DNA of 64,000 nucleotides from Alkalispirochaeta sp. (GTDB lineage Bacteria; Spirochaetota; Spirochaetia; DSM-27196; Alkalispirochaetaceae). The notes under the pieces were generated by a model that made no database searches, was not told the origin of the DNA, and was given only the letters and a program-made list of their open reading frames with translations. The position numbers were made by a program, and so were the translations under genes. The DNA is taken from positions 3,136,001-3,200,000 of the forward strand of contig OZ271854.1 of NCBI GenBank assembly GCA_965601925.1. Direction: 5' to 3'. Shown here piece after piece: positions 1,014 through 12,355 of the stretch (its first letter is position 1; every line of letters starts with the position of its first letter).

Positions 1014-1592
1014 TTAGTCGCCGTCGCCCGCCCACCGGTCGAACGTGACGCCCCGCGCCTCGTCCAGGCGCGCGATTAATCGTACCGGGTCGTCGTCGTG
1101 AAGCACCAAATTTCTGCTGCGACGAAGCAAAAACCCCTCGTCCACCATAGCGTCGAAGAAACGGAGTAACGGATTGTAGAAGCCCGCCACATCGAGTAGA
1201 CCCACCGGCTTGCCGTGAAGGCCGATCTGGGCCCAACTCAGCACCTCCGAGAGTTCCTCCAGGGTACCGAATCCGCCGGGTAGTGCGATGAAGCCGTCGC
1301 TTCGGTCCATCATCTCCCGTTTGCGCTCGTGCATGGACGTGACGATGGTGAGCTCCGTCAACCCTGGGTGGGCGATCTCGCGGTCTTCCAGGTGTTTGGG
1401 AATCACACCCAGAACCTCACCGCCCCGCGAGAGCGTGGCGTCGGCGACGATTCCCATGAGACCCGCCTTCCCTCCGCCGTACACCAACCGTGCGCCGGCA
1501 TCAACGATCGCCGTACCGAGGGAACGGGCCGCGGCCTCGTAACGGACGTCGCTACCGGGTGAGGACCCGCAGTACACACATATCGAGTTCAT
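1014..1592 (-). CDS. LOG-family nucleotide 5'-monophosphate phosphoribohydrolase (TIGR00730-type)
   Basis: ICVYCGSS, LVYGGGKAGLMG, MHERK and the PGGFGTLEE signature. The ATG overlaps the upstream stop (ATGA). Confidence 0.95.
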   Translation of the reverse strand: MNSICVYCGSSPGSDVRYEAAARSLGTAIVDAGARLVYGGGKAGLMGIVADATLSRGGEVLGVIPKHLEDREIAHPGLTELTIVTSMHERKREMMDRSDGFIALPGGFGTLEELSEVLSWAQIGLHGKPVGLLDVAGFYNPLLRFFDAMVDEGFLLRRSRNLVLHDDDPVRLIARLDEARGVTFDRWAGDGD

Positions 1593-4555
1593 GAATCGAT
1601 CTTCTCCTTGCCGATGTTCGACGGCCGTAACCGTGCGTCGAGACGGTCCAGCGTGGCGGCTACACGGCTCCGTCCCGCAAGCTCAGCGGGTCGCAACGTC
1701 CCGGTACGATGAAGCTCGCGACACGCCTCGGCGTACGGGATACGGGCAAGCCCGGCTATGATACGACTCCCGCGGTCGACCAGCTTTTTGTTGGTGGGAT
1801 CGACCTGCACCATGAAGTTACCCTTGATGCGTCCCAACCGCGCCATCGTGGCGGTCGAAACGGTGTTGAGGATGAGCTTGAGCGCGAGACGGCGGTATAG
1901 ATCGGAGAGAGTCTCCCGCATCACCAACGGTATTGCGGTGTAGCGTGTGGATTCGTCGTCGACACCCCCGCCGATTGAGGACCGCGCGTTCGGATGGTCC
2001 GTCGCGTGTGCGGCACCAACCGCGACGTGTATACGGTCGGCACCGACGGAACGCTCCTCCCGCAACGCCGCCCCGACGCGCTCACCGTCCGTCTCACCGG
2101 CGCTTATTCCGATAAAGAGGGCGCCGTCTTCCGAAGAACGCTCCGCGAGCCCGTCGATTCCGATGCGATATTCGGCCAGTGCACGCGACGAAAGGGGCGG
2201 TGGTGAGTCGATGAAGCGCTGCGGGGCGGCAAGCTCCTCGTATACGTCACGACCCCACTCCAGCCCGCGGGGAGCGCGCAGCAGCATATCGCGCCACGCC
2301 TTCTCGGTCTGCAGTCGCGCATGTTTCGGAAAGGCCCACGACGGCGGTGCGTTGCCCTCGGATGCGGCGCGCATGGGCGGGAGATTAAACGTCGGCGTGC
2401 GCTCCGACGTGTCGCTGAAGACGTCCAGGAGGTATCGGTCTGCGAGGTAGGTCACCAGACCGCCGCGGCGATACACCTCCTCTTCCGCCTCGACAAGGCG
2501 TGCGAGTGTCGCTACCGTGTCGTCCGACTGCAGAGAGGCGAGGAGACGATCGAAGTGATGAGCATACGACTCCTCGCTCAACGCCCCGTCGCCTTGGAGC
2601 CGACGAATCGCGTCGTCCATGGCCGACCCTACGACGAGCAACTCGGCACTCGTCGCCTGCATACGCGTCGATCCGGCGATCGCCATGGCGCCGGTCGTGA
2701 GGTCTAGTGCGACGACTTTCGGATGCTCTATTAGTTCTCGCGACCGTTCGGTTCGGGAGATCAACAACTCAGTCGGATTATTGTACACGAAAAAGACGGA
2801 CGCGCCGCGTTCCAAGGCTTCCCAGGCGGTGCCGATCACCGACGAGGTTTCCCCACCTTCGGAGATTGCAATGCACAGATCGCCCTTGCCGATGCCGAGG
2901 TCGACCATTTGACGGCGGCCGAATATCTGGAAGTCTTCGAAGCTTTCTACCGACTTTATGAGCGCCCGGTCGCCACCGGTGATGATACCGGCCGCGCGAT
3001 CGGCGATTTCAGCATCCGCATCGAGCCACGCGCGACGCCACATCGTCTCCAGAAGTACCGCAAGGCGACCCGTGGAGCCGCACCCGGAGATACGCAGTCT
3101 CCCGCCGTTTCGGATCGTCCGTACGATCGCCCCGGAGAGGGAGCGCCACGCGTCGCCGCCGATGGTGCGGCGGGCGACCGGTGCGATATCTTCGTCGACC
3201 GCAAGAAGTGCCCGTATTCCGGCCCGCGTGTCGCCGGCGATCGTGTCGCTAAGCGTGGATGTCGCCGGATGGGATTGCTCGGTTACGAGATGACCCAGAT
3301 GAAACTGCGTCTCCTCGTCGACGAATCGGCGCGCCTCTCCATCCGCGGCGATCCTTTGTATGCGTCGGGCGTGACGCAGGAGGATCCGCGGAAGATGAAA
3401 GCAGCCCTTCCACTTGCCGCCCTTCTGCTGCGTCGAGGGCGTCCCGTCGCGATGGAGATATCCGTACCACTCGTCGAACTCGGGATCGCGAAAACGGTCC
3501 CACGTATAACGTTCGATCCGGCTGTGCCACTCGCGAAACGGTTCGGTATCGCCTTCGCGTTGCGACGTATCGGCGTCGGCGGCGACCAACGCGGCGTACA
3601 TCGACTCCAGATGAACCCACCACAATTTCATATCGTGTTCGAGTTTCTCCGGCGCGTGCCCCGCGTAGTCTTGAAAGTAGAGTATGCCGTCGTGCTCCGC
3701 ATCCCATCCGCGCTCAAACGTCCACAACAGCGCCTGTCGCGCGCGCTCGATCCACTCCGTATGTCCGAGCTCTTCGGCGGCCTCAATGGCCATCCACAGC
3801 GCCTCGGCGGCGTGGCCGGGATTGAGAAGACGTCCGTCCATGCCGTCGGGATGCGACCCGTCCGCCAACACGTGCTCGAAAACCGCGCGACGCTCGGCGT
3901 CGATGTGGCGCCCCAGAATCACCGATGCGTTGTCCTCCAGCACACCGACGAGTCCGCGCTCGTCCAAGCCGACACCGTCGCCGCCGATCGTCCGCGCAAA
4001 TACGTCGGCCATGTTGAGCTGAATCATGGGAAGCGACATCGCGAGGGTCGGGCGCGATCCGGTCACCGTCTTGGTCCAGCGCCCCTTGGGACGGAGCGAC
4101 CGTTCGCGTACCCTGCGCCACGACCGACGGGCGACCGTCGCCGCCTCGTCGGAATCGGAGGCGGCCGCATACTCGGCCATTGCCATGGCGGCAAAACAAT
4201 CGGAGAAGATGTTATAGGGCTCCACCAACGGCGTCCCGTCGCGTAAGAGCGAAAAGTACCAGTCGCCCGACTCCGAGCGGCCGTGGCGCAACAAAAAATC
4301 GGCGCCCAGCGCGGCGAGATCGAGCCAATCTCCACGCCGCTCGACGGTGCGATAGAGGTGAGAGAACATCCACACCTGGCGCGCTTGCAGCCAGACGAAC
4401 TTGTCGGTATCGAAGACCGTTCCGTCGCGCTCCAAGCACGTGAAGTATCCGCCGTGCTTACGGTCCGGGGAGTGGCGTTCCCAGAACGGAATGACGCGGT
4501 CCAGTAGTTCGGAATAGTACGTTTCGGCCGTACGGTCGCTCGGGATCGGGTTCAT
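1589..4555 (-). CDS. Fusion of N-acylglucosamine 2-epimerase (AGE family) and a MurQ/GCKR-like SIS-domain module
   Basis: First ~405 aa: GGYFTCLERDG, DKFVWLQARQVW, NPGHAAE, KLWWVHLE, KGGKWKGCFHLPR. Remainder: TEQSHP, GCGSTGRL, ISEGGET, GSTRMQAT, KLILNTVST...LGRIKGNFMVQVDPTNKKLVDRG. Confidence 0.85.
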   Translation of the reverse strand: MNPIPSDRTAETYYSELLDRVIPFWERHSPDRKHGGYFTCLERDGTVFDTDKFVWLQARQVWMFSHLYRTVERRGDWLDLAALGADFLLRHGRSESGDWYFSLLRDGTPLVEPYNIFSDCFAAMAMAEYAAASDSDEAATVARRSWRRVRERSLRPKGRWTKTVTGSRPTLAMSLPMIQLNMADVFARTIGGDGVGLDERGLVGVLEDNASVILGRHIDAERRAVFEHVLADGSHPDGMDGRLLNPGHAAEALWMAIEAAEELGHTEWIERARQALLWTFERGWDAEHDGILYFQDYAGHAPEKLEHDMKLWWVHLESMYAALVAADADTSQREGDTEPFREWHSRIERYTWDRFRDPEFDEWYGYLHRDGTPSTQQKGGKWKGCFHLPRILLRHARRIQRIAADGEARRFVDEETQFHLGHLVTEQSHPATSTLSDTIAGDTRAGIRALLAVDEDIAPVARRTIGGDAWRSLSGAIVRTIRNGGRLRISGCGSTGRLAVLLETMWRRAWLDADAEIADRAAGIITGGDRALIKSVESFEDFQIFGRRQMVDLGIGKGDLCIAISEGGETSSVIGTAWEALERGASVFFVYNNPTELLISRTERSRELIEHPKVVALDLTTGAMAIAGSTRMQATSAELLVVGSAMDDAIRRLQGDGALSEESYAHHFDRLLASLQSDDTVATLARLVEAEEEVYRRGGLVTYLADRYLLDVFSDTSERTPTFNLPPMRAASEGNAPPSWAFPKHARLQTEKAWRDMLLRAPRGLEWGRDVYEELAAPQRFIDSPPPLSSRALAEYRIGIDGLAERSSEDGALFIGISAGETDGERVGAALREERSVGADRIHVAVGAAHATDHPNARSSIGGGVDDESTRYTAIPLVMRETLSDLYRRLALKLILNTVSTATMARLGRIKGNFMVQVDPTNKKLVDRGSRIIAGLARIPYAEACRELHRTGTLRPAELAGRSRVAATLDRLDARLRPSNIGKEKIDS

Positions 4556-5406
4556 TTTATTGCTCCTGCGGTAATGCCTTTGATGAAGTACCGAGACATG
4601 AACATGTAGAGAATCAACATCGGAAGTATCGCTATCGAGAGCGCGGCAAAGACCAACGCCCAGTTGATCTGATACTGTCCGAAGAAGGTGCTGATACCCA
4701 CCGGCAGCGTCTTGAGGCGATCGGTGCGCACGAAGACGAGGGGAAAGAAAAAATCGTTCCAGATCGGGACCATGTTGTAAATCGTGACTAACGCGATCGA
4801 CGGCGCCGAAAGAGGTAGGGCGACGCGTCGATAGATTCCGAAATCGTTAGCTCCGTCGATGCGCGCCGCGTCCTCCAGATCCTGCGGTATGGTTCGCATG
4901 AAGCCGGCGAGAATGAACACCGTGGAGGGAATACCCATCGCGGCGAACACGAGAATCAGTGCCGCGTGGGAGTCCAGGAGTCCCATCCGCCGCACGATCA
5001 AAAAAAGGGGGATGACCGCCGCCTTGAGCGGTAGCATGATACCGGCGAGAAACAGCATGTAAATCGCCGTGTTGAGGCGATACCGGTAGCGCGCGATGCC
5101 GAACGACGCCATGGAACCGAAGAGCAGCACGCCGACCATGGCGATCACGGTCACGAACACGCTGTTTCGGATATAGCGACCGAAGCGTCCGTCTACCCAT
5201 ACGGTGCGGTAATTGTCGAGGACCCACTCTCGGGGTACGCCGAAGGGGTGTTGGAAGATCTCCCGTGTCGTTTTGAACGACGAGAGTACCATGTTCACGA
5301 GGGGGTAGAGCACCACGACCGCGTAGGCGATCATGACGATCTCGACGGTGAGATATACCGCGCGTTTGATCGGTGACGAGGTGGCCAGATCGATATCGAA
5401 GATCAC
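4552..5406 (-). CDS. Carbohydrate ABC transporter permease (MalG-like)
   Basis: EAA loop LEDAARIDGA, WNDFFFPL, C-terminal FIKGITAGAIK. Confidence 0.95.
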   Translation of the reverse strand: MIFDIDLATSSPIKRAVYLTVEIVMIAYAVVVLYPLVNMVLSSFKTTREIFQHPFGVPREWVLDNYRTVWVDGRFGRYIRNSVFVTVIAMVGVLLFGSMASFGIARYRYRLNTAIYMLFLAGIMLPLKAAVIPLFLIVRRMGLLDSHAALILVFAAMGIPSTVFILAGFMRTIPQDLEDAARIDGANDFGIYRRVALPLSAPSIALVTIYNMVPIWNDFFFPLVFVRTDRLKTLPVGISTFFGQYQINWALVFAALSIAILPMLILYMFMSRYFIKGITAGAIK

Positions 5407-6371
5407 ATCTCCACCTCGCGTGTTCGGAGTCCCAGAATTGAGGCGAGCGAGAAGGCAAAGGTGAGCACGTAGATGAGGACACCGATCGACGAGCCGATGC
5501 CGATCTCGGGAATCCCCGTGTCCACGCTCCCGAATGCGGTGCGATAGAAGAGGGTGCCGATGGTGTCGGTGGAGAAGAACGGTCCCGCGGAGAGACCGGC
5601 CATCGTGAACACCTGCTCAAAGACGTTGAGGCTCCCGATCATCGTGAGAACGGTGATGATCGTGATCGCAGGAACGATCAGCGGGAGGACGACACGGAAG
5701 AACACCGTCGTCTCACGCGCCCCGTCGAGATATGCCGCTTCGATACACGCCTTCGGTACGTTGTTGATCGCCGCATAAAACACCAGCGTCGGAAATCCGA
5801 GCCAGCGCCACATGTTGACCGTGATAATCGCGTAGGTAGCCAACCCCGCCTCGCCCAGCCACGGTCGTGCCGCTCCTTCCGCGCCGACGGCGCGGAGAAG
5901 TTGATTGATCAGTCCGTAGTTGGGGTTAAGATACAGACGCCATAGAAAGCCCACCGCCACGATGGAAAAGAGCACGGGGATGAAGAAGATGCGCTGAAAG
6001 ATCTTGGAGCCGGGAATGCTTCGGCTCAAGAAATATCCAAATGCCAAACCGAGTAGGTTCTGCACCGCCATCGTGACCGCAAACCACCGCACGTTGTTGG
6101 CCAGGGCGTTCCACAGCCGTTCGTTATATGGAAACTCGAAGAAGATCGTGCGAAAGTTGGCCAAGCCGACAAATGCGCCCCGCTCAGTACTACGCCACTC
6201 AAATGCGCTGTTGAACAGTGAGAGAAACAACGGCGCGATAATGAATGTAAGTACGATCGCGAGCGCCGGCGTTACGAAAAAGGCGATCCAGAGATTTCGT
6301 TGGAGCGTTCTATGCGCCATATCGAGCCGTCGAGCGAACCGCGACGCGAACTCATCGACGTCGCGGCGCAC
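5403..6371 (-). CDS. Carbohydrate ABC transporter permease (MalF-like)
   Basis: FVGLANF, IEAAYLDGA EAA loop, multiple TM helices. Confidence 0.93.
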   Translation of the reverse strand: MRRDVDEFASRFARRLDMAHRTLQRNLWIAFFVTPALAIVLTFIIAPLFLSLFNSAFEWRSTERGAFVGLANFRTIFFEFPYNERLWNALANNVRWFAVTMAVQNLLGLAFGYFLSRSIPGSKIFQRIFFIPVLFSIVAVGFLWRLYLNPNYGLINQLLRAVGAEGAARPWLGEAGLATYAIITVNMWRWLGFPTLVFYAAINNVPKACIEAAYLDGARETTVFFRVVLPLIVPAITIITVLTMIGSLNVFEQVFTMAGLSAGPFFSTDTIGTLFYRTAFGSVDTGIPEIGIGSSIGVLIYVLTFAFSLASILGLRTREVEM

Positions 6372-6377
6372 CCAGTC

Positions 6378-7643
6378 TCAGTCTTGAAACGGCTCGAACC
6401 ACGTCGCGAGGCCGCGGTGCACATCCTCGGCGGCGTCGGCGGCGGTGATCTCTCCCGCGAACATCTCCTGCAGCGCCGATTGCAGTAAGGTCGAACCGGT
6501 CGGCTGTTCGTACCGGAATCCTACCAAATGAACATACGGCGTGGCGTGCTCGTTTAGGCGGATCAACTCTCCGAGAAACGGATCGTCGACGGACACGCCG
6601 GGAACGTCCGACTTCAACTTGAGGTTCTCAGCCAGAAATTGGCCCGCCTCGCGACTCATCAGAAACGATAGGAAGCGTGTAGCCGCCTCGGGATGTTCGG
6701 TCGTTGCCGAGGCGCCGAACGAACCGTCGACAAAACTCGATACGTATCGCGTTCCCCCTCGCTCCGCAGGCGGCCCGGCAAAGATGCCGATCTCGAGAGA
6801 CGGATTTTGCGACGCGAAGTAGGCGGCCTCCCAACTCCCGCCGATGAAGTGTCCGGCACCCTCGTTTATGAAGCTCGCCTGCATATCGACGTATCCGACA
6901 CCCATGTAACCGTCGGGCATGAACGGTATGAGCTCGTTGAGTACGTCGAGCGCAGCGACGTATCGGCGATCGGTGAAGTCGGTCTCGCCGGTGATCACGG
7001 CGTCAAAAAAATCGTCGGCGCCGTAGAAACTCGGCCCGATCACGCCGCTCATCACCTCAAGCGTCCACCCGTCGGCGGCACCGTTGGCCAGCGGCGTAAT
7101 ACCCGCCTCACGCATCGCCTCGAGGTTCACTATGAACTCGTCCCACGTCTCCGGCTCCGCGAGACCGAGCTCGTCGTACATCCGCGCATTATAGTAGATG
7201 ACCAGCGTCTGACTCGCAAACGGCACACCGTATACGCGTCCGTCGGCGATCGATGTCGCCCCGCGCCGCGTCCCGGCGGGAACATCTTCCAACGCCGAAA
7301 TCTCGCCGTCCAGCGGCATGAGATATCCGGGCTGGGCAAATTGCTCCAGGCCGCCGTAGGCCCGTAGATGGATGATATCGGGCCCTCCGCCCCCCTGGAG
7401 CGCCGCGGAAAGCACCGTGTTGTATTCCGTTTGTACGATCGGGTTGAAGGTGACGCGAATGTCGGGATTTTGCGTCTCGAATCGTTCAATCAGCGATTCA
7501 TACACCGCGACATCCTCGACCCGCCACGACCAAAACTCAAGAACCGTCGCATCGTCGGTTGTCTCTTCTCCCGATCCCGAGGGAAACACCGCGAAAACGA
7601 CCAATAACCCCAACACTAATACGCCGCCGAGACGATTTTTCAC
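6378..7643 (-). CDS. Carbohydrate ABC transporter substrate-binding protein
   Basis: Signal peptide, LEFWSW, GPDII, GRVYGVP, YYNARMY..LGLAEPETWDEF; GTG start with AGGAGG RBS. Confidence 0.93.
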   Translation of the reverse strand: MKNRLGGVLVLGLLVVFAVFPSGSGEETTDDATVLEFWSWRVEDVAVYESLIERFETQNPDIRVTFNPIVQTEYNTVLSAALQGGGGPDIIHLRAYGGLEQFAQPGYLMPLDGEISALEDVPAGTRRGATSIADGRVYGVPFASQTLVIYYNARMYDELGLAEPETWDEFIVNLEAMREAGITPLANGAADGWTLEVMSGVIGPSFYGADDFFDAVITGETDFTDRRYVAALDVLNELIPFMPDGYMGVGYVDMQASFINEGAGHFIGGSWEAAYFASQNPSLEIGIFAGPPAERGGTRYVSSFVDGSFGASATTEHPEAATRFLSFLMSREAGQFLAENLKLKSDVPGVSVDDPFLGELIRLNEHATPYVHLVGFRYEQPTGSTLLQSALQEMFAGEITAADAAEDVHRGLATWFEPFQD

Positions 7644-7809: not shown

Positions 7810-9423
7810 ATGGACATTTTTCATCGACGAGCGGGTAAGCGTGACGAGCGACCGTGGGGCGGTTCCGGGTTCCGTCTCTACTTCGTCTCCGCCCTGCCGT
7901 TTGTCGCCGTCCTCGTGGCGGGCTCGCTCCTCTATCACTATCAGACGCGTCCGTTGATCCTCGACGAGTACGAGGGCGATATCGAAACCAATTTGGACCT
8001 CAAGTCTCTGTTTATCTCACGGTGGGTCGAGGAACGGGTTCTTTTAATAGGATACTTCGCGGGGCATCTCGCCGGTCACGTCGAAGACATGGCCGGCCTT
8101 ACCGAGGAGGTCATGCGATTTGCCGATGAGTTGCCGGATTTCACTGCGGCGGTCGTCGTCTCACCCGACGGGTACGTCCTCGTCGACTCGGCGGGGCCGG
8201 GCGGCGGCTACGTCGGCGACAGAGAGTATTTTCAAAGGGCGCTTGCCGGAACCATCAACGTCAGCGAGGTCATCGTCGGTCGTACGACCGGTCGCCAACT
8301 GATCGTCTTTGCCGCGCCGGTGTACCGCGACTCGAGCGACATATTCGGCGTCGTGTTCGCTCCCGTGAGTCTTACGACGCTCGAGGATGTGATCGTCGAG
8401 CTTTCCGCGACGAGGCCCATTCACGCCACCCTCGTCGATCGAAACGATGTCGTGATCGCCACTAGCTATCCGCGCTCTGAGCGTACCATGCTTCCGACAT
8501 ATCGCCCGGGATATGAGGAACCGACGGTCTTTACGAACGAGGCGGGTATCGAGGTCATCAGATCACGACGGCAAATCGACATCACCGAGTGGTCGCTTGT
8601 GGTGGAGTCGGACATCGAGGAGTTGGTACACGTCTTCAACCGCTATAACGCGGCGTTGGCCGTCACCGTCGTCGTCGCGACCGTCGTTATCGCCCTTCTT
8701 CTGGTGAGAATCAGACACTCGGTCGTCAGCATGATTCGCGTTCTGGATACGATGAGCCGCAATATCGGCGATGGCGACTATACGGCGGCGCGGGCACTGC
8801 GGTTGCCGTCGACCGCGCCCGGAGAGCTGCGGCGCCTCTATGCGACGATCCGCGACATGGCTTTGGCAGTCCATGCGCGCCACACTGAACTGCAGCATAT
8901 GTCGCTCACCGATCCGCTCACGTCTCTGGCAAATCGGCTCTATCTCGAGAGCGAAGGGACGCGAATCATCCAAATGTGCGCTCTTTCCAACCAGCCGTGC
9001 TCGGTTCTCGTCCTCGACATCGACCATTTCAAGTCGATAAACGATACGCTCGGGCACGACGCCGGCGATCGGGTGCTAATCGCTTTCTCGCGGACGCTCG
9101 CCCGCTCCTTTCGCGCCGGAGATTTTCTGGCGCGGTACGGCGGCGAGGAGTTCGTGGCGATACTTCCGCGTACGGGATGCGAGGAGGCCGTCGGCCTTGC
9201 CGAAAGGATTCGGATCGTCGTCGAGGAGGACGAACGGTTGGTTACACCGGCTATGCAGCGGGTAACGATCAGTATCGGCGTCGGCGAAGTCGTCTTTCCG
9301 GACGACGCCGTCGTGGAAGAGGCGAGTTGCCGCGCCCTCCTCGAGGCCGCCATTACATTTGCCGATCGTGAGCTTTACCGGGCCAAAGCCGGGGGGCGGA
9401 ATCGCGTTTCGGGGGTGTGTTGA
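7810..9423 (+). CDS. Membrane diguanylate cyclase (TM-dCache-TM-HAMP-GGDEF)
   Basis: Cache-type GDREYFQRA...SEVIVGRTTG; TDPLTSLANR, DIDHFKSINDTLGH, RxxD I-site (RAGD), RYGGEEF. Confidence 0.92.
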   Translation: MDIFHRRAGKRDERPWGGSGFRLYFVSALPFVAVLVAGSLLYHYQTRPLILDEYEGDIETNLDLKSLFISRWVEERVLLIGYFAGHLAGHVEDMAGLTEEVMRFADELPDFTAAVVVSPDGYVLVDSAGPGGGYVGDREYFQRALAGTINVSEVIVGRTTGRQLIVFAAPVYRDSSDIFGVVFAPVSLTTLEDVIVELSATRPIHATLVDRNDVVIATSYPRSERTMLPTYRPGYEEPTVFTNEAGIEVIRSRRQIDITEWSLVVESDIEELVHVFNRYNAALAVTVVVATVVIALLLVRIRHSVVSMIRVLDTMSRNIGDGDYTAARALRLPSTAPGELRRLYATIRDMALAVHARHTELQHMSLTDPLTSLANRLYLESEGTRIIQMCALSNQPCSVLVLDIDHFKSINDTLGHDAGDRVLIAFSRTLARSFRAGDFLARYGGEEFVAILPRTGCEEAVGLAERIRIVVEEDERLVTPAMQRVTISIGVGEVVFPDDAVVEEASCRALLEAAITFADRELYRAKAGGRNRVSGVC

Positions 9424-9580
9424 CAACGACGGATGTGGCGCTGGCCCTCAATTTCGCCGATCATGGTAGTTCTACGGGCCCATTGGTGGTTAATTTCGAT
9501 GTGCATACTACAATTATCGAAAGGGTCCGTAGCTCCCGCAAAAAAAGTTAGAGGGTATACGAATCGAGAATTTCAAGTAT

Positions 9581-12355
9581 TTGACGGACTTACTGACCAG
9601 CTTTGACGCAGCGGTCGTGTTTTGTCGACGCCGCTCCGACGGTGAGTTTCTCGTGGTCGACGTCAACGAGCTGGCGTGCGAGCACGAGGAAGTGGAACGA
9701 GAAGACGTAGTGGGCGCACCGGTGAAGGAGGCCTTCCCGGTATCCGGAATCTCGGGACTGCCGAGCATGATGCAGGAGGTGCTCGTCTCCGGGGCGGTGC
9801 GTGAGTTGAGCCCGCGCACGGTCGTCCATCGCGGCTTTCCGGAGCGTCGGCGGTACTGGGTATCGCCCGTCGACGGACGATCGGTGATGGTCGTCACTAC
9901 CCGCGACGGCGATGCACTGTTGGACCCCAGCGAGTCCTCACCGACCGGCGTACTGTTTCATTCGGTATTTAACTCGGTGTATGACGGCGTCTTCATTCAT
10001 CGTATCGACGGGTCGATCGTAACGGTCAATCGACGCGCCCTGGAACTCTTTCGCGTCTCTCGCTCCGAGGCGCTTTCGGCCTCGATGATCGACGATTTCT
10101 CAGACCCGGCGGCGCCGATCGAGCAGTTGCCCGATCTGTGGGAGTCGGTCGTCGACGGGAAATCGCAGTTCTTCTCGTGGAGCGCCCGGCGTCCCGGTGA
10201 CGGGTCGGTTTTCGACGTCGAGGTGTATCTTACGCGCCTCCCCCTTCCTCACGATGTGCTGATTCTGGCGACGATCCGTGACGTTTCGAGGGAGGTGTTT
10301 CTCGAACGCGAGCTGTTGAATTATCGGTCGCGTTTCGAGCAGATCGCACTGATATCGGCGGATTGGATCTGGGAGACCGATGCATGGGGGTCCTTTGTCT
10401 ACGCCTCAGAACGGGTGCTGAACTTTCTGGGATACACACCGGCGGAGCTTCTCGGACGCAGTCCGACCGAGTTTATGGAGCACGAAGCCGACAACGGCGG
10501 CGCGCCGACCATGGCCGAGGCGTTCGATCGCAGAGAGGCGATAACCGACGCCGAGGGTCGCTATTGTGCCAAGAACGGCACTCACGGGTACGTGTTGACG
10601 AACGCCGTCCCGCGTTATACCGAAGGCGGCGAGTTTCTCGGTTTTATCGGCATCGTCAAGGATATCACCTTCCAAAAGCAGCGTGAGAACGAGCTGCGTC
10701 TATATCAGAAAGTATTCGAGAACGCCGTCGAGGGGATCGTCATTACCGATCCGAACGGAACCATTCGCTCGGCAAATCCGGCGTTCACGAGGATTACCGG
10801 CTATCGGGAAGATGAGGTCCTCGGCAGGAATCCGCGGACTCTCAAATCGGACCGCCACGATTCGCAGTTTTACGCCGATATGTGGCGCGCCATCACCGAG
10901 GAGGGTGAGTGGACCGGGGAGGTCTGGAATCGTCGTAAATCCGGCGAGTCGTATCCCGAGCGGTTGAGCATCAGCGCCATTCGCAACTCCAACGTTATCG
11001 AGCATTTCGTCGGCGTCTTTCACGACATCTCGGAGATGAAAACGAAAGAGGAGCAGATCCGTCACCAGGCGCTCCACGATGCGCTCACGGGTCTACCAAA
11101 TCGGACGCTGCTTCTCGACCGCGCCGATGTCGCACTCCGACACGTTCGCCGCGGAGAGGGGTTGGTAACGATCTTGTTTCTCGATTTGGACAATTTCAAG
11201 AATATCAACGACAGCCTCGGCCATTCGGTCGGCGACGCGCTTCTGCAGGCGGTCGCGAATCGGGTGGAGCCGTTAATCCGCGAGACCGATACGCTGGCAC
11301 GCCTCGGCGGCGACGAGTTCGTCGTGCTCATGCTGTCCGAGACCGCGCATCGTAACACGATGAGGGTGACCGAGCGCATCCTTCAGGCGTTCAAGGAGCC
11401 GTTTGTCATCGGCGGACATGAGCTGTTTGTCACCGCGAGCATCGGTGTCGCCGAGTATCCGGCCGACGGGAAGGACTCCGAGACGCTGATCAAAAACGCC
11501 GACCTTGCGATGTACGAGGCCAAAGCGAGCGGTAAGAGCACCTACCATATGTTCACGACGCAGCTCCACGAGAGCGCTCGGGAGCGAATCGAGCTCGAAA
11601 ACGCGCTGCGTCGCGCTTTGGAGGGGCGGAGCATTACGGTCGCCTACCAGCCTAAGGTCGCCGCCGACGGCGGAGTTTGCGGGCTGGAGGCGTTGGCGCG
11701 GTGGGTGCTCGACGGAAGTCCGGTATCGCCGAGTCATTTCATTCGCGCCGCCGAGGACAGCGGGTTGATCACCGATCTCGACGCATTTGTGCTGGAGACG
11801 GCCTGTCGTGAGATATTGGCGATGGGCGAGGTCGCGAAGAGGCTGTCGCTTGCAGTAAACATTTCGGCACGCTCTCTCCATCAAAAAGACGCTGCAGCAC
11901 GCATTCTGCGCTCTCTGGAGGAGACCGGCTTCCCTCCTCGACGTTTCGAGGTCGAGATCACCGAGACGGCCGCCATGGGCAGGATCGAAACCGCCGCGAC
12001 GCAGTTGGCGAAGCTCTCCGATGCGGGGATCCGCGTCAGCATCGACGACTTCGGTACCGGGTATTCGTCGTTGGCGTATCTCAAGGAGCTCCCCATCGAT
12101 ACGCTCAAGATCGATCGATCTTTCGTACGAGACCTTCCCGGTAACCAAGACGATGTAGAGATCACCTCGACGATAATTGCTATGGCCAAGAATCTCTCGC
12201 TACGCGTCGTCGCCGAGGGCGTCGAGACGAAAGATCAGCTCGATTTTCTCATCGAACGGGGCTGCAATGAGTATCAGGGGTACTATTTCGCGAAGCCCAT
12301 GCCGGTCGGCGAGCTCGCCGCGTTTCTGAAGGGTGCCGGGGCGGTTCCCCGGTGA
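9581..12355 (+). CDS. Multi-PAS GGDEF-EAL c-di-GMP protein
   Basis: Three to four PAS/PAC segments, HDALTGLPNR, RLGGDEF, EALARW, DDFGTGYSSL, KIDRSF, EGVET, QGY. TTG start is uncertain. Confidence 0.93.
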   Translation: MTDLLTSFDAAVVFCRRRSDGEFLVVDVNELACEHEEVEREDVVGAPVKEAFPVSGISGLPSMMQEVLVSGAVRELSPRTVVHRGFPERRRYWVSPVDGRSVMVVTTRDGDALLDPSESSPTGVLFHSVFNSVYDGVFIHRIDGSIVTVNRRALELFRVSRSEALSASMIDDFSDPAAPIEQLPDLWESVVDGKSQFFSWSARRPGDGSVFDVEVYLTRLPLPHDVLILATIRDVSREVFLERELLNYRSRFEQIALISADWIWETDAWGSFVYASERVLNFLGYTPAELLGRSPTEFMEHEADNGGAPTMAEAFDRREAITDAEGRYCAKNGTHGYVLTNAVPRYTEGGEFLGFIGIVKDITFQKQRENELRLYQKVFENAVEGIVITDPNGTIRSANPAFTRITGYREDEVLGRNPRTLKSDRHDSQFYADMWRAITEEGEWTGEVWNRRKSGESYPERLSISAIRNSNVIEHFVGVFHDISEMKTKEEQIRHQALHDALTGLPNRTLLLDRADVALRHVRRGEGLVTILFLDLDNFKNINDSLGHSVGDALLQAVANRVEPLIRETDTLARLGGDEFVVLMLSETAHRNTMRVTERILQAFKEPFVIGGHELFVTASIGVAEYPADGKDSETLIKNADLAMYEAKASGKSTYHMFTTQLHESARERIELENALRRALEGRSITVAYQPKVAADGGVCGLEALARWVLDGSPVSPSHFIRAAEDSGLITDLDAFVLETACREILAMGEVAKRLSLAVNISARSLHQKDAAARILRSLEETGFPPRRFEVEITETAAMGRIETAATQLAKLSDAGIRVSIDDFGTGYSSLAYLKELPIDTLKIDRSFVRDLPGNQDDVEITSTIIAMAKNLSLRVVAEGVETKDQLDFLIERGCNEYQGYYFAKPMPVGELAAFLKGAGAVPR

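Follow-up and report, generated by a model that had tools for sequence, protein, structure and literature searches.

The DNA analysed here is a 64 000-nucleotide stretch of Alkalispirochaeta sp. (contig OZ271854.1 of assembly GCA_965601925.1, forward-strand positions 3,136,001 to 3,200,000; below, the window), and its subject is a gene encoding a 988-aa protein that joins an N-acylglucosamine 2-epimerase (AGE) domain to a module related to MurQ, the etherase of N-acetylmuramic acid (MurNAc) 6-phosphate, and to the glucokinase regulatory protein (GKRP). The gene stands last in an operon that also encodes a sugar-binding protein and two permeases of an ATP-binding cassette (ABC) transporter. Its parts and its neighbours are as follows.

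1589..4555, minus strand: fusion gene P0001, 988 aa, AGE epimerase plus single-chain double-SIS module of MurQ/GKRP fold
3356..4555, minus strand: AGE (N-acylglucosamine 2-epimerase) domain, residues 1-400
3305..3418, minus strand: junction, residues 380-417
2594..3298, minus strand: SIS-1, the first MurQ copy, residues about 420-654, with the GCGSTGR loop, ESFED (E540), the SEGGET loop and GSTRMQ
2846..2863, minus strand: SEGGET loop, residues 565-570, phosphate cradle by homology
1901..2593, minus strand: SIS-2, a degenerate second MurQ copy, residues about 655-885, earlier described as an insert
2387..2413, minus strand: DTSERTPTF, residues 715-723, counterpart of MurQ DASECPPTF
1628..1900, minus strand: lid, the C-terminal part of MurQ, residues about 886-976, with N922, K924, L925 and R928
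4552..5406, minus strand: sugar ABC permease, its stop overlapping the start of the fusion gene
5403..6371, minus strand: sugar ABC permease, the second of the operon
6378..7643, minus strand: sugar-binding protein, in one operon with the two permeases and the fusion gene
1014..1592, minus strand: LOG-family (TIGR00730) gene, overlapping the stop codon of the fusion gene

The original prediction, made by a model from the letters of this stretch, described a single uninterrupted 988-aa open reading frame at 1589..4555, and so we find it, on the minus strand, which had not been given. The motifs quoted at that time are all present (QARQVW with R59, NPGH with H248, WWVHLE with E317, GCFH with H387, ESFED at 537-541, SERTPTF at 717-723, together with the linker, LLETMWRR, GSTRMQAT and KLILNTVST), and codons 371-440 hold no in-frame ATG, GTG or TTG, in agreement with the claim that the junction lacks an internal start. 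A Pfam scan places GlcNAc_2-epim at residues 36-383 (E 1e-49) and GKRP_SIS_N at residues 477-575 (E 9e-11); among solved structures, the whole protein comes closest to two epimerases, 2GZ6 and 6F04 (E about 1e-111), and next to MurQ and GKRP.

The front half is an AGE with its motifs intact, predicted to interconvert N-acetylmannosamine (ManNAc) and N-acetylglucosamine (GlcNAc). The fusion protein aligns with 2GZ6 at E 9e-112 and matches PF07221 with 170 bits (gathering cut-off 23.4). Residues R59, H248, E251, E317, H387 and R390 match R57, H239, E242, E308, H372 and R375 of 2GZ6 (2GZ6 numbers counted from the alignment) and are invariant in all 10 fused proteins and in a 78-row alignment; we take the two His, with the Arg and Glu, at the matched 2GZ6 positions to be the catalytic and substrate residues of AGE. 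The domain shares these active-site residues with known AGE (2GZ6, 6F04, 1FP3; NCBIfam equivalog NF052547), and differs in being fused to a SIS module and in scoring 450.9 bits against NF052547, below the cut-off of 600, which is still its best family (cellobiose epimerase, 48). It is the sole epimerase of its kind in the source genome, where NanA scores above cut-off, several ROK kinases are present and NanE was not found. In Bacteroides, the NanL/NanE-II/RokA route epimerises free ManNAc and then phosphorylates the product, according to the accessible text of PMC10017367; the gene set just listed for the source genome has the same layout.

For the back half we built a structure model of residues 405-988 (584 aa) from a 109-row alignment (predicted local distance difference test, pLDDT, 93.8; predicted template modelling score 0.93). 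In a Foldseek search the top matches are GKRP chains (E 1.9e-21, TM 0.61-0.69), with MurQ behind them. VIA-align superposes the model on GKRP 4BB9 with Z 37.9 and a root-mean-square deviation of 2.9 over 494 aligned residues; MurQ 4S12 can be matched to nothing beyond the first 252 residues of the model, that is, SIS-1. The likeness to GKRP is therefore stronger than had been proposed from length and motifs, as the predicted model spans the whole GKRP fold. What had been read as a long insert between GSTRMQAT and KLILNTVST is a second MurQ copy that aligns to the N-terminal half of MurQ (E 7e-4 with 13 sequences and 9e-4 with 31; reversed control E 0.4): its helix, its strand and DTSERTPTF fall on the MurQ helix, strand and DASECPPTY, and the GAGTSGR loop is lost. 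By this alignment SERTPTF, previously only likened to DASECPPTF, is the catalytic motif of the second copy; the DASECPPTF loop of SIS-1 is replaced by a helix.

Both DxxExxPT[FY] and NxKLxDR occur in 200 of 200 distinct members of the family to which the module belongs, and E540, E718, N922, K924 and R928 are invariant in all 109 alignment rows. We take the MurQ catalytic set to be the Glu of DASECPPTF, the second Glu of EGAED and the Lys of NxKL, here E718, E540 and K924. SIS-1 and the lid map to the GKRP site through N922, K924, L925, R928, E540, S565, G567, T630 and R631, the four lid residues N922, K924, L925 and R928 matching GKRP N512, K514, L515 and R518. The ligand site of GKRP consists, in the accessible text of PMC4109836, of SIS-1 residues, Glu348 and His351 of SIS-2, and Asn512, Lys514, Leu515 and Arg518 of the lid; E718 would be the counterpart both of this Glu348 and of the catalytic Glu that MurQ draws from its partner subunit. 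We infer that SIS-1 (E540 and the loops), SIS-2 (E718) and the lid (K924) rebuild a single MurQ-type composite site within one chain, much as two subunits would in the MurQ dimer. Family-specific invariant changes in this pocket are C492, E566, E569, Q633 and R719.

Canonical MurQ is a dimer of chains of about 300 aa, whereas the module is one chain of about 584 aa with the DxxE motif moved to the second copy. SIS-1 and the C-terminal part align with MurQ, the ExxED, DxxExxPT[FY] and NxKL motifs are present, and both proteins share a context of peptidoglycan-sugar recycling and the same slot in an orthologous operon. The loops differ (GCG[AS]TGR, [ST]EGGET and STRMQ in the module; GAG[TS]SGR, A[SC]GxT-type and STR[ML]K in canonical MurQ), the module falls below the MurQ cut-offs (NF003915, 130.7 bits in two stretches, cut-off 168; TIGR00274, 93.8 versus 302), and a MurNAc kinase or phosphotransferase system (PTS) partner was not found in most of the genomes that carry it. 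With GKRP/GCKR (4BB9, 3W0L, 4LC9) the module shares the predicted SIS1-SIS2-lid fold, a putative composite ligand site and counterparts of E153, S179, G181, S258, R259, N512, K514, L515 and R518; it differs in being bacterial, in an identity of 17-19%, in a probable Pro at H351, in Glu at V180 and S183, and in a gene context from which no glucokinase-like partner is predicted. The Pfam model GKRP_SIS_2 (PF22198) matches nothing in the genome even with E allowed up to 10, and does not match the C-terminal 346 aa with E allowed up to 1. GKRP and the module have in common a helical insertion ahead of the GSxRM motif, which is absent from MurQ; as a sign that the duplication may be of common descent it is only a lead. 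The accessible text of a recent report (bioRxiv 10.64898/2026.05.08.723886) has GKRP arising by duplication and uneven fusion of murQ, finds the Naegleria, lancelet and frog proteins to be active etherases, gives etherase activity as the ancestral state, and treats glucokinase binding and inhibition as a jawed-vertebrate and mammalian trait; proteins of GKRP fold can thus be working etherases, and a sensor role cannot be read from the shape. The Streptomyces GlcNAc-6-phosphate dehydratase NagS, which can be likened to the module by description only, is another MurQ-related SIS enzyme with a site from two monomers, and differs in having a single SIS domain and, as its accessible description has it, in being confined to Streptomycetaceae (PMC12680351). 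Among lower-ranking proteins of a second family search, clustered at 50% identity (P0207-P0271), some of about 500-540 aa match the profile to about 385 and then over a second stretch, and a second set measures about 650-740 aa; both sets are probably further double-SIS subfamilies.

To place the long form, as we call the single-chain module whether fused or not, in its genomic setting, we kept 80 loci from at least 563 matches in GTDB genomes and counted neighbours within 8 kb. AnmK and a sodium symporter each occur in 18 of the 80 loci, NamZ in 16, a β-lactamase-fold hydrolase (presumably like AmiE) in 24, an NlpC/P60 protein in 3 and an epimerase in 5. According to the accessible text of PMC8054146, NamZ sets MurNAc free and mostly occurs together with MurQ. 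In the order of the source genome, the long form occurs in 24 of all 99 genomes and a canonical MurQ in one; NamZ is present in 21, comprising 19 of the 24 with the long form and 2 of the 75 without it, an association to be read as a pattern and not as a test, because the genomes are related. The source genome itself has NamZ, and no canonical MurQ was found in it. At about 1.64 Mb (locus L207, 8239-15975) it carries a cluster of a ROK repressor, an ABC transporter, GH20 and NamZ, a cluster for breaking down peptidoglycan glycans without an etherase of its own.

The operon of the window has a twin built around canonical MurQ (L134, L144 and G031), which comprises RpiR, MurQ, a binding protein, two permeases, an epimerase and a BadF-type kinase. 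The binding proteins of L134 and L144 have the window's own binding protein as their best match in the source genome (44-49%), and the same protein is that genome's best match, at 44-54% identity, to binding proteins of related operons, whether these carry the long form or canonical MurQ. Close copies of it are found in 10 genomes of the order, 9 of which have a MurQ-type gene. Neither the RpiR regulator nor the BadF kinase of the canonical operons was found in any of the 80 long-form loci. One long-form gene is directly followed by a GlcD-like FAD oxidase (L005, 2337-3713; a relative lies in L095) that could oxidise released D-lactate, and other neighbours or fusion partners of the long form include GH20, GH18, GH2, DUF6259, DUF4838 and an SGNH esterase.

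We propose, tentatively and with slightly less than even confidence, that the back half is a one-chain MurQ that cuts D-lactate from free MurNAc, here fused to an amino-sugar epimerase; that it cleaves the lactyl ether of muramate in one form or the other, free or phosphorylated, seems to us quite probable. NamZ and other hydrolases would release MurNAc, which the upstream ABC transporter would import without phosphorylating it; the module would then eliminate lactate and add water to give GlcNAc, the epimerase would feed ManNAc (e.g. from the NanA lyase) into the GlcNAc pool shared with the etherase, and a general ROK kinase would phosphorylate GlcNAc afterwards.

The choice between free MurNAc and its 6-phosphate turns largely on a comparison of 26 long-form with 13 canonical-MurQ genomes. 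A BadF-type kinase was found in none of the former and 5 of the latter, and a MurP-like PTS in none and 8 (one a partial match); counting either kind, a candidate MurNAc kinase or PTS exists in 12 of the 13 canonical genomes, while in 25 of the 26 long-form genomes none of the known kinds was found. The sole PF02378 PTS match in the source genome is of the mannitol type, and a search of 24 long-form genomes for AnmK found it in one. In 200 of 200 family members the sequence of the phosphate loop is [ST]EGGE[TI], its E566 and E569 being invariant and unseen in 31 canonical MurQ sequences, and the Lys that follows STRM is replaced by Gln in 199 of the 200. In 15 of the 80 loci, every one of them from Planctomycetota, the long form has a canonical anmK-murQ-symporter operon with intact-looking motifs as its neighbour, so the long form does not replace MurQ everywhere, and this retention suggests that the two act on different substrates. 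It would make sense, judging from these gene arrangements, if AnmK and MurQ took anhydro-MurNAc and the long form took the free MurNAc made by NamZ. In these loci (L024, 5752-6648; L034, 4702-5703; and 13 more) the anmK-murQ-sodium symporter genes are divergent, often followed by namZ and a β-lactamase-fold hydrolase gene, and the phosphate loop of their MurQs contains Cys-Gly (AACGMT).

The same loops, genomes and operons can be set against a free-sugar substrate, and most of what weighs against it favours instead the same fusion acting as a single-chain MurNAc-6-phosphate etherase, which would replace dimeric MurQ and receive its substrate from an unrecognised kinase, probably of the ROK family. 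The hydroxyls of the phosphate cradle (T495, S/T565 and T570) are kept and the loop resembles GKRP S179-V180-G181; to our knowledge, SIS-fold enzymes all act on phosphosugars. The GKRP-fold etherases were measured on MurNAc-6-phosphate (bioRxiv 10.64898/2026.05.08.723886, accessible text). None of the 99 genomes in the order, nor of the 301 in the phylum, was found to have both the long and the canonical form, which is what replacement would give. In G376, the split relative nearest to the fusion, the operon includes a ROK kinase along with a NagB-like gene, so it cannot be said that long-form operons never contain a kinase. Several ROK-family kinases in the source genome have specificities that sequence does not assign, and G019 (86% complete) combines the long form with AnmK, canonical MurQ not having been found. 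The genome contrast is moreover confounded, since a single order supplies 24 of the 26 long-form genomes, most of the assemblies are fragmented, and lineage and assembly quality differ between the sets. The epimerase by itself is no argument for a free sugar, because in related operons it also accompanies canonical MurQ with a kinase; its link to etherases would on that showing predate the fusion. The duplication on which the composite site depends is weak by sequence (hhalign probability 23-26%), and SIS-2 has no detectable similarity to SIS-1 of the long family itself (E 0.22). NagA, too, was found neither in the source genome nor in 15 of 24 long-form genomes. Set against the missing BadF and MurP-like partners, the 15 loci that keep canonical murQ and the fixed Glu and Gln substitutions, a 6-phosphate substrate strikes us as rather unlikely, though it would leave the lactyl-ether chemistry unchanged.

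Two further readings alter the chemistry or dispense with it. The module might carry out a MurQ-type elimination on another amino sugar (de-N-acetylated or N-glycolyl muramic acid, or a 3-O-substituted N-acetylhexosamine), or a NagS-like dehydration of GlcNAc-6-phosphate, NagS being a MurQ-related SIS dehydratase (PMC12680351, accessible text); the invariant pocket changes (C492, E566, E569, Q633, R719), the hydrolase and esterase partners listed above and the NagA gap are in keeping with such a substrate, which we consider improbable given that the tightest partner is NamZ, whose product, in the accessible text of PMC8054146, is MurNAc. The original prediction had offered a bifunctional enzyme or an epimerase controlled by a sugar-phosphate sensor. 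The former gains support from the retained MurQ-type site residues and the NamZ/AnmK context, and we regard a bifunctional enzyme as likely. The latter, a non-catalytic GKRP-like domain switching the epimerase, could draw on the predicted full GKRP fold and on a junction of fixed length that is predicted to be helical; it fares poorly and seems very improbable to us, as 108 of the best 120 relatives are standalone without an epimerase, only 5 of the 80 loci have an epimerase within 8 kb, no regulated partner lies nearby, the MurQ-type site residues are invariant, the module is also joined to unrelated domains, and the ancestral state of GKRP is given as an etherase (bioRxiv 10.64898/2026.05.08.723886, accessible text).

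Some observations concern the sugar-phosphate genes that would act downstream. An association of NagA with the long form was considered and dropped, as NagA occurs in 9 of 24 long-form genomes and 31 of 74 genomes with neither form. The split operon of G376 (L248, 5331-9838) is headed by a 778-aa NagB-like protein (weak PRK02122 match), then a ROK repressor and the ROK kinase; the long C-terminal part of the 778-aa protein might be a deacetylase replacing NagA. At about 2.73 Mb of the source genome (L255, 5178-10331), a ROK repressor, a SIS protein, a PIG-L deacetylase and an aldose epimerase form a candidate nagA/nagB substitute.

The fusion itself is real and looks like operon compaction. 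A family search scored on residues 405-988 returned 2303 proteins among 8000 scored candidates, and the best 120 of these, examined in detail, comprise 10 epimerase fusions including the query (964-999 aa), 2 proteins with an unrecognised N-terminus and 108 standalone forms (545-662 aa); more distant fusions may rank below these 120. The architecture search suggested alongside the original prediction accordingly finds the same AGE-SIS arrangement in 9 further 90%-identity clusters, with 15 member sequences from NCBI, ENA, JGI and Logan, one of them named as a Spirochaetales bacterium, and these clusters reach down to 55% identity. In each of the 16 fused sequences compared, 26 residues separate the end of the epimerase from the SIS module, and junction residues 380-417 are predicted as one continuous helix with moderate confidence (the full-length model, from a 10-row alignment, has pLDDT 64.9, too low for the packing of the domains to be read from it). 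A tree was computed with FastTree from 213 rows, 200 of them distinct, with P0044, P0053 and any locus lacking a complete frame excluded. In it all ten fusions group with P0011 and P0015, the two proteins of unrecognised N-terminus, on a single branch (Shimodaira-Hasegawa-type support, SH, 88), which joins a branch containing split forms (SH 99).

In those split relatives the epimerase and SIS genes overlap within the same ABC-transporter operon; at four loci (L016, L225, L019 and L137) the epimerase stop overlaps the next start by 4 bases, as ATGA or GTGA. It had been held that the fusion would fall if close relatives always encoded two genes: split overlapping genes do exist, and yet not always, as the fusion also recurs. 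The simplest history, on this tree, is one origin by the joining of two translationally coupled neighbours, and the fusion may add little beyond co-expression. The split relatives and their 4-base overlaps are also what one would expect if the assembly were wrong here, or if one gene had recently and neutrally come to be read through into the next; nine more clusters down to 55% identity, from four sources, with the same junction length and on one branch, have effectively refuted that already.

P0011 and P0015, nested among the fusions, have in place of the epimerase an unrecognised residue 1-260 region that may be a replaced or decayed domain. This N-terminus of about 260 aa has no Pfam, epimerase-profile or Atlas match, and decay from an epimerase is undetectable in it (hhalign E 0.25; hmmsearch below threshold; Atlas none). 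A 987-aa frame in G347 was rejected as a second fusion because its extension overlaps a ROK gene on the opposite strand, and the long AGE frames of L174 and L175 are open-frame extensions without a SIS match. In single representatives the long module is joined to GH2, DUF4838/GH67N, DUF6259, SGNH esterase, GNAT and S1/P1-like domains (P0130, P0145, P0148, P0150, P0165 and P0219), and P0131, P0172, P0232 and P0192 have long extra parts without a Pfam match; the partners in 14 scanned are glycan-acting or unknown domains, with no recognised kinase among them. Such variety indicates that the module fuses readily with its neighbours, and part of these fusions may be gene-calling errors. A promoter and terminator scan showed nothing beyond chance.

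The epimerase fusion alone is of modest interest; most of the interest lies in the large family behind it. Besides the 2303 proteins of the search above, the second search gave 692 clusters at 50% identity (E up to 1e-30), some of which may be other relatives. In public annotations the standalone members go by the names MurQ, sugar phosphate isomerase or hypothetical. No title or abstract opening that we found deals with the family or the fusion; the primary MurQ papers and Veiga-da-Cunha 2009 may mention bacterial double-SIS forms. What is new is the fusion to the epimerase, the exchange of the long form and canonical MurQ between otherwise similar operons, the coupling to NamZ and the missing phosphorylation step. 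More tentatively still than for the single protein, we suggest that the long family, widespread in Spirochaetota, Planctomycetota, Verrucomicrobiota and Lentisphaerota, acts on free MurNAc as an etherase that needs no kinase, a phosphate-free SIS enzyme that shares the duplicated architecture of GKRP, and perhaps its origin, and is fused here to an epimerase handling its product. If so, it would open a third recycling route (NamZ, ABC or symporter uptake, lyase, GlcNAc) with a new step of peptidoglycan recycling. The long form occupies the MurQ slot that stands empty in genomes where NamZ frees MurNAc, and it shows that bacteria, too, possess the duplicated architecture that has been described as the origin of eukaryotic GKRP. 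For mycobacteria, a lactyl etherase giving GlcNAc by a non-MurQ route has been postulated and not identified, according to the accessible text of PMC13041923.

Other genes near the fusion or in its genome appear to be of less consequence. The LOG-family phosphoribohydrolase gene downstream of the fusion is present in none of the 80 related loci and is probably a passenger. Divergent from the operon, on the plus strand at 7810-12355 of the window, lie genes for a dCache-GGDEF protein and a PAS-GGDEF-EAL protein, ordinary signalling genes. Elsewhere in the source genome (L247, 3828-7168), a PFL2/3-type glycyl radical enzyme and its activase stand beside a ROK kinase and a Gfo/Idh dehydrogenase.

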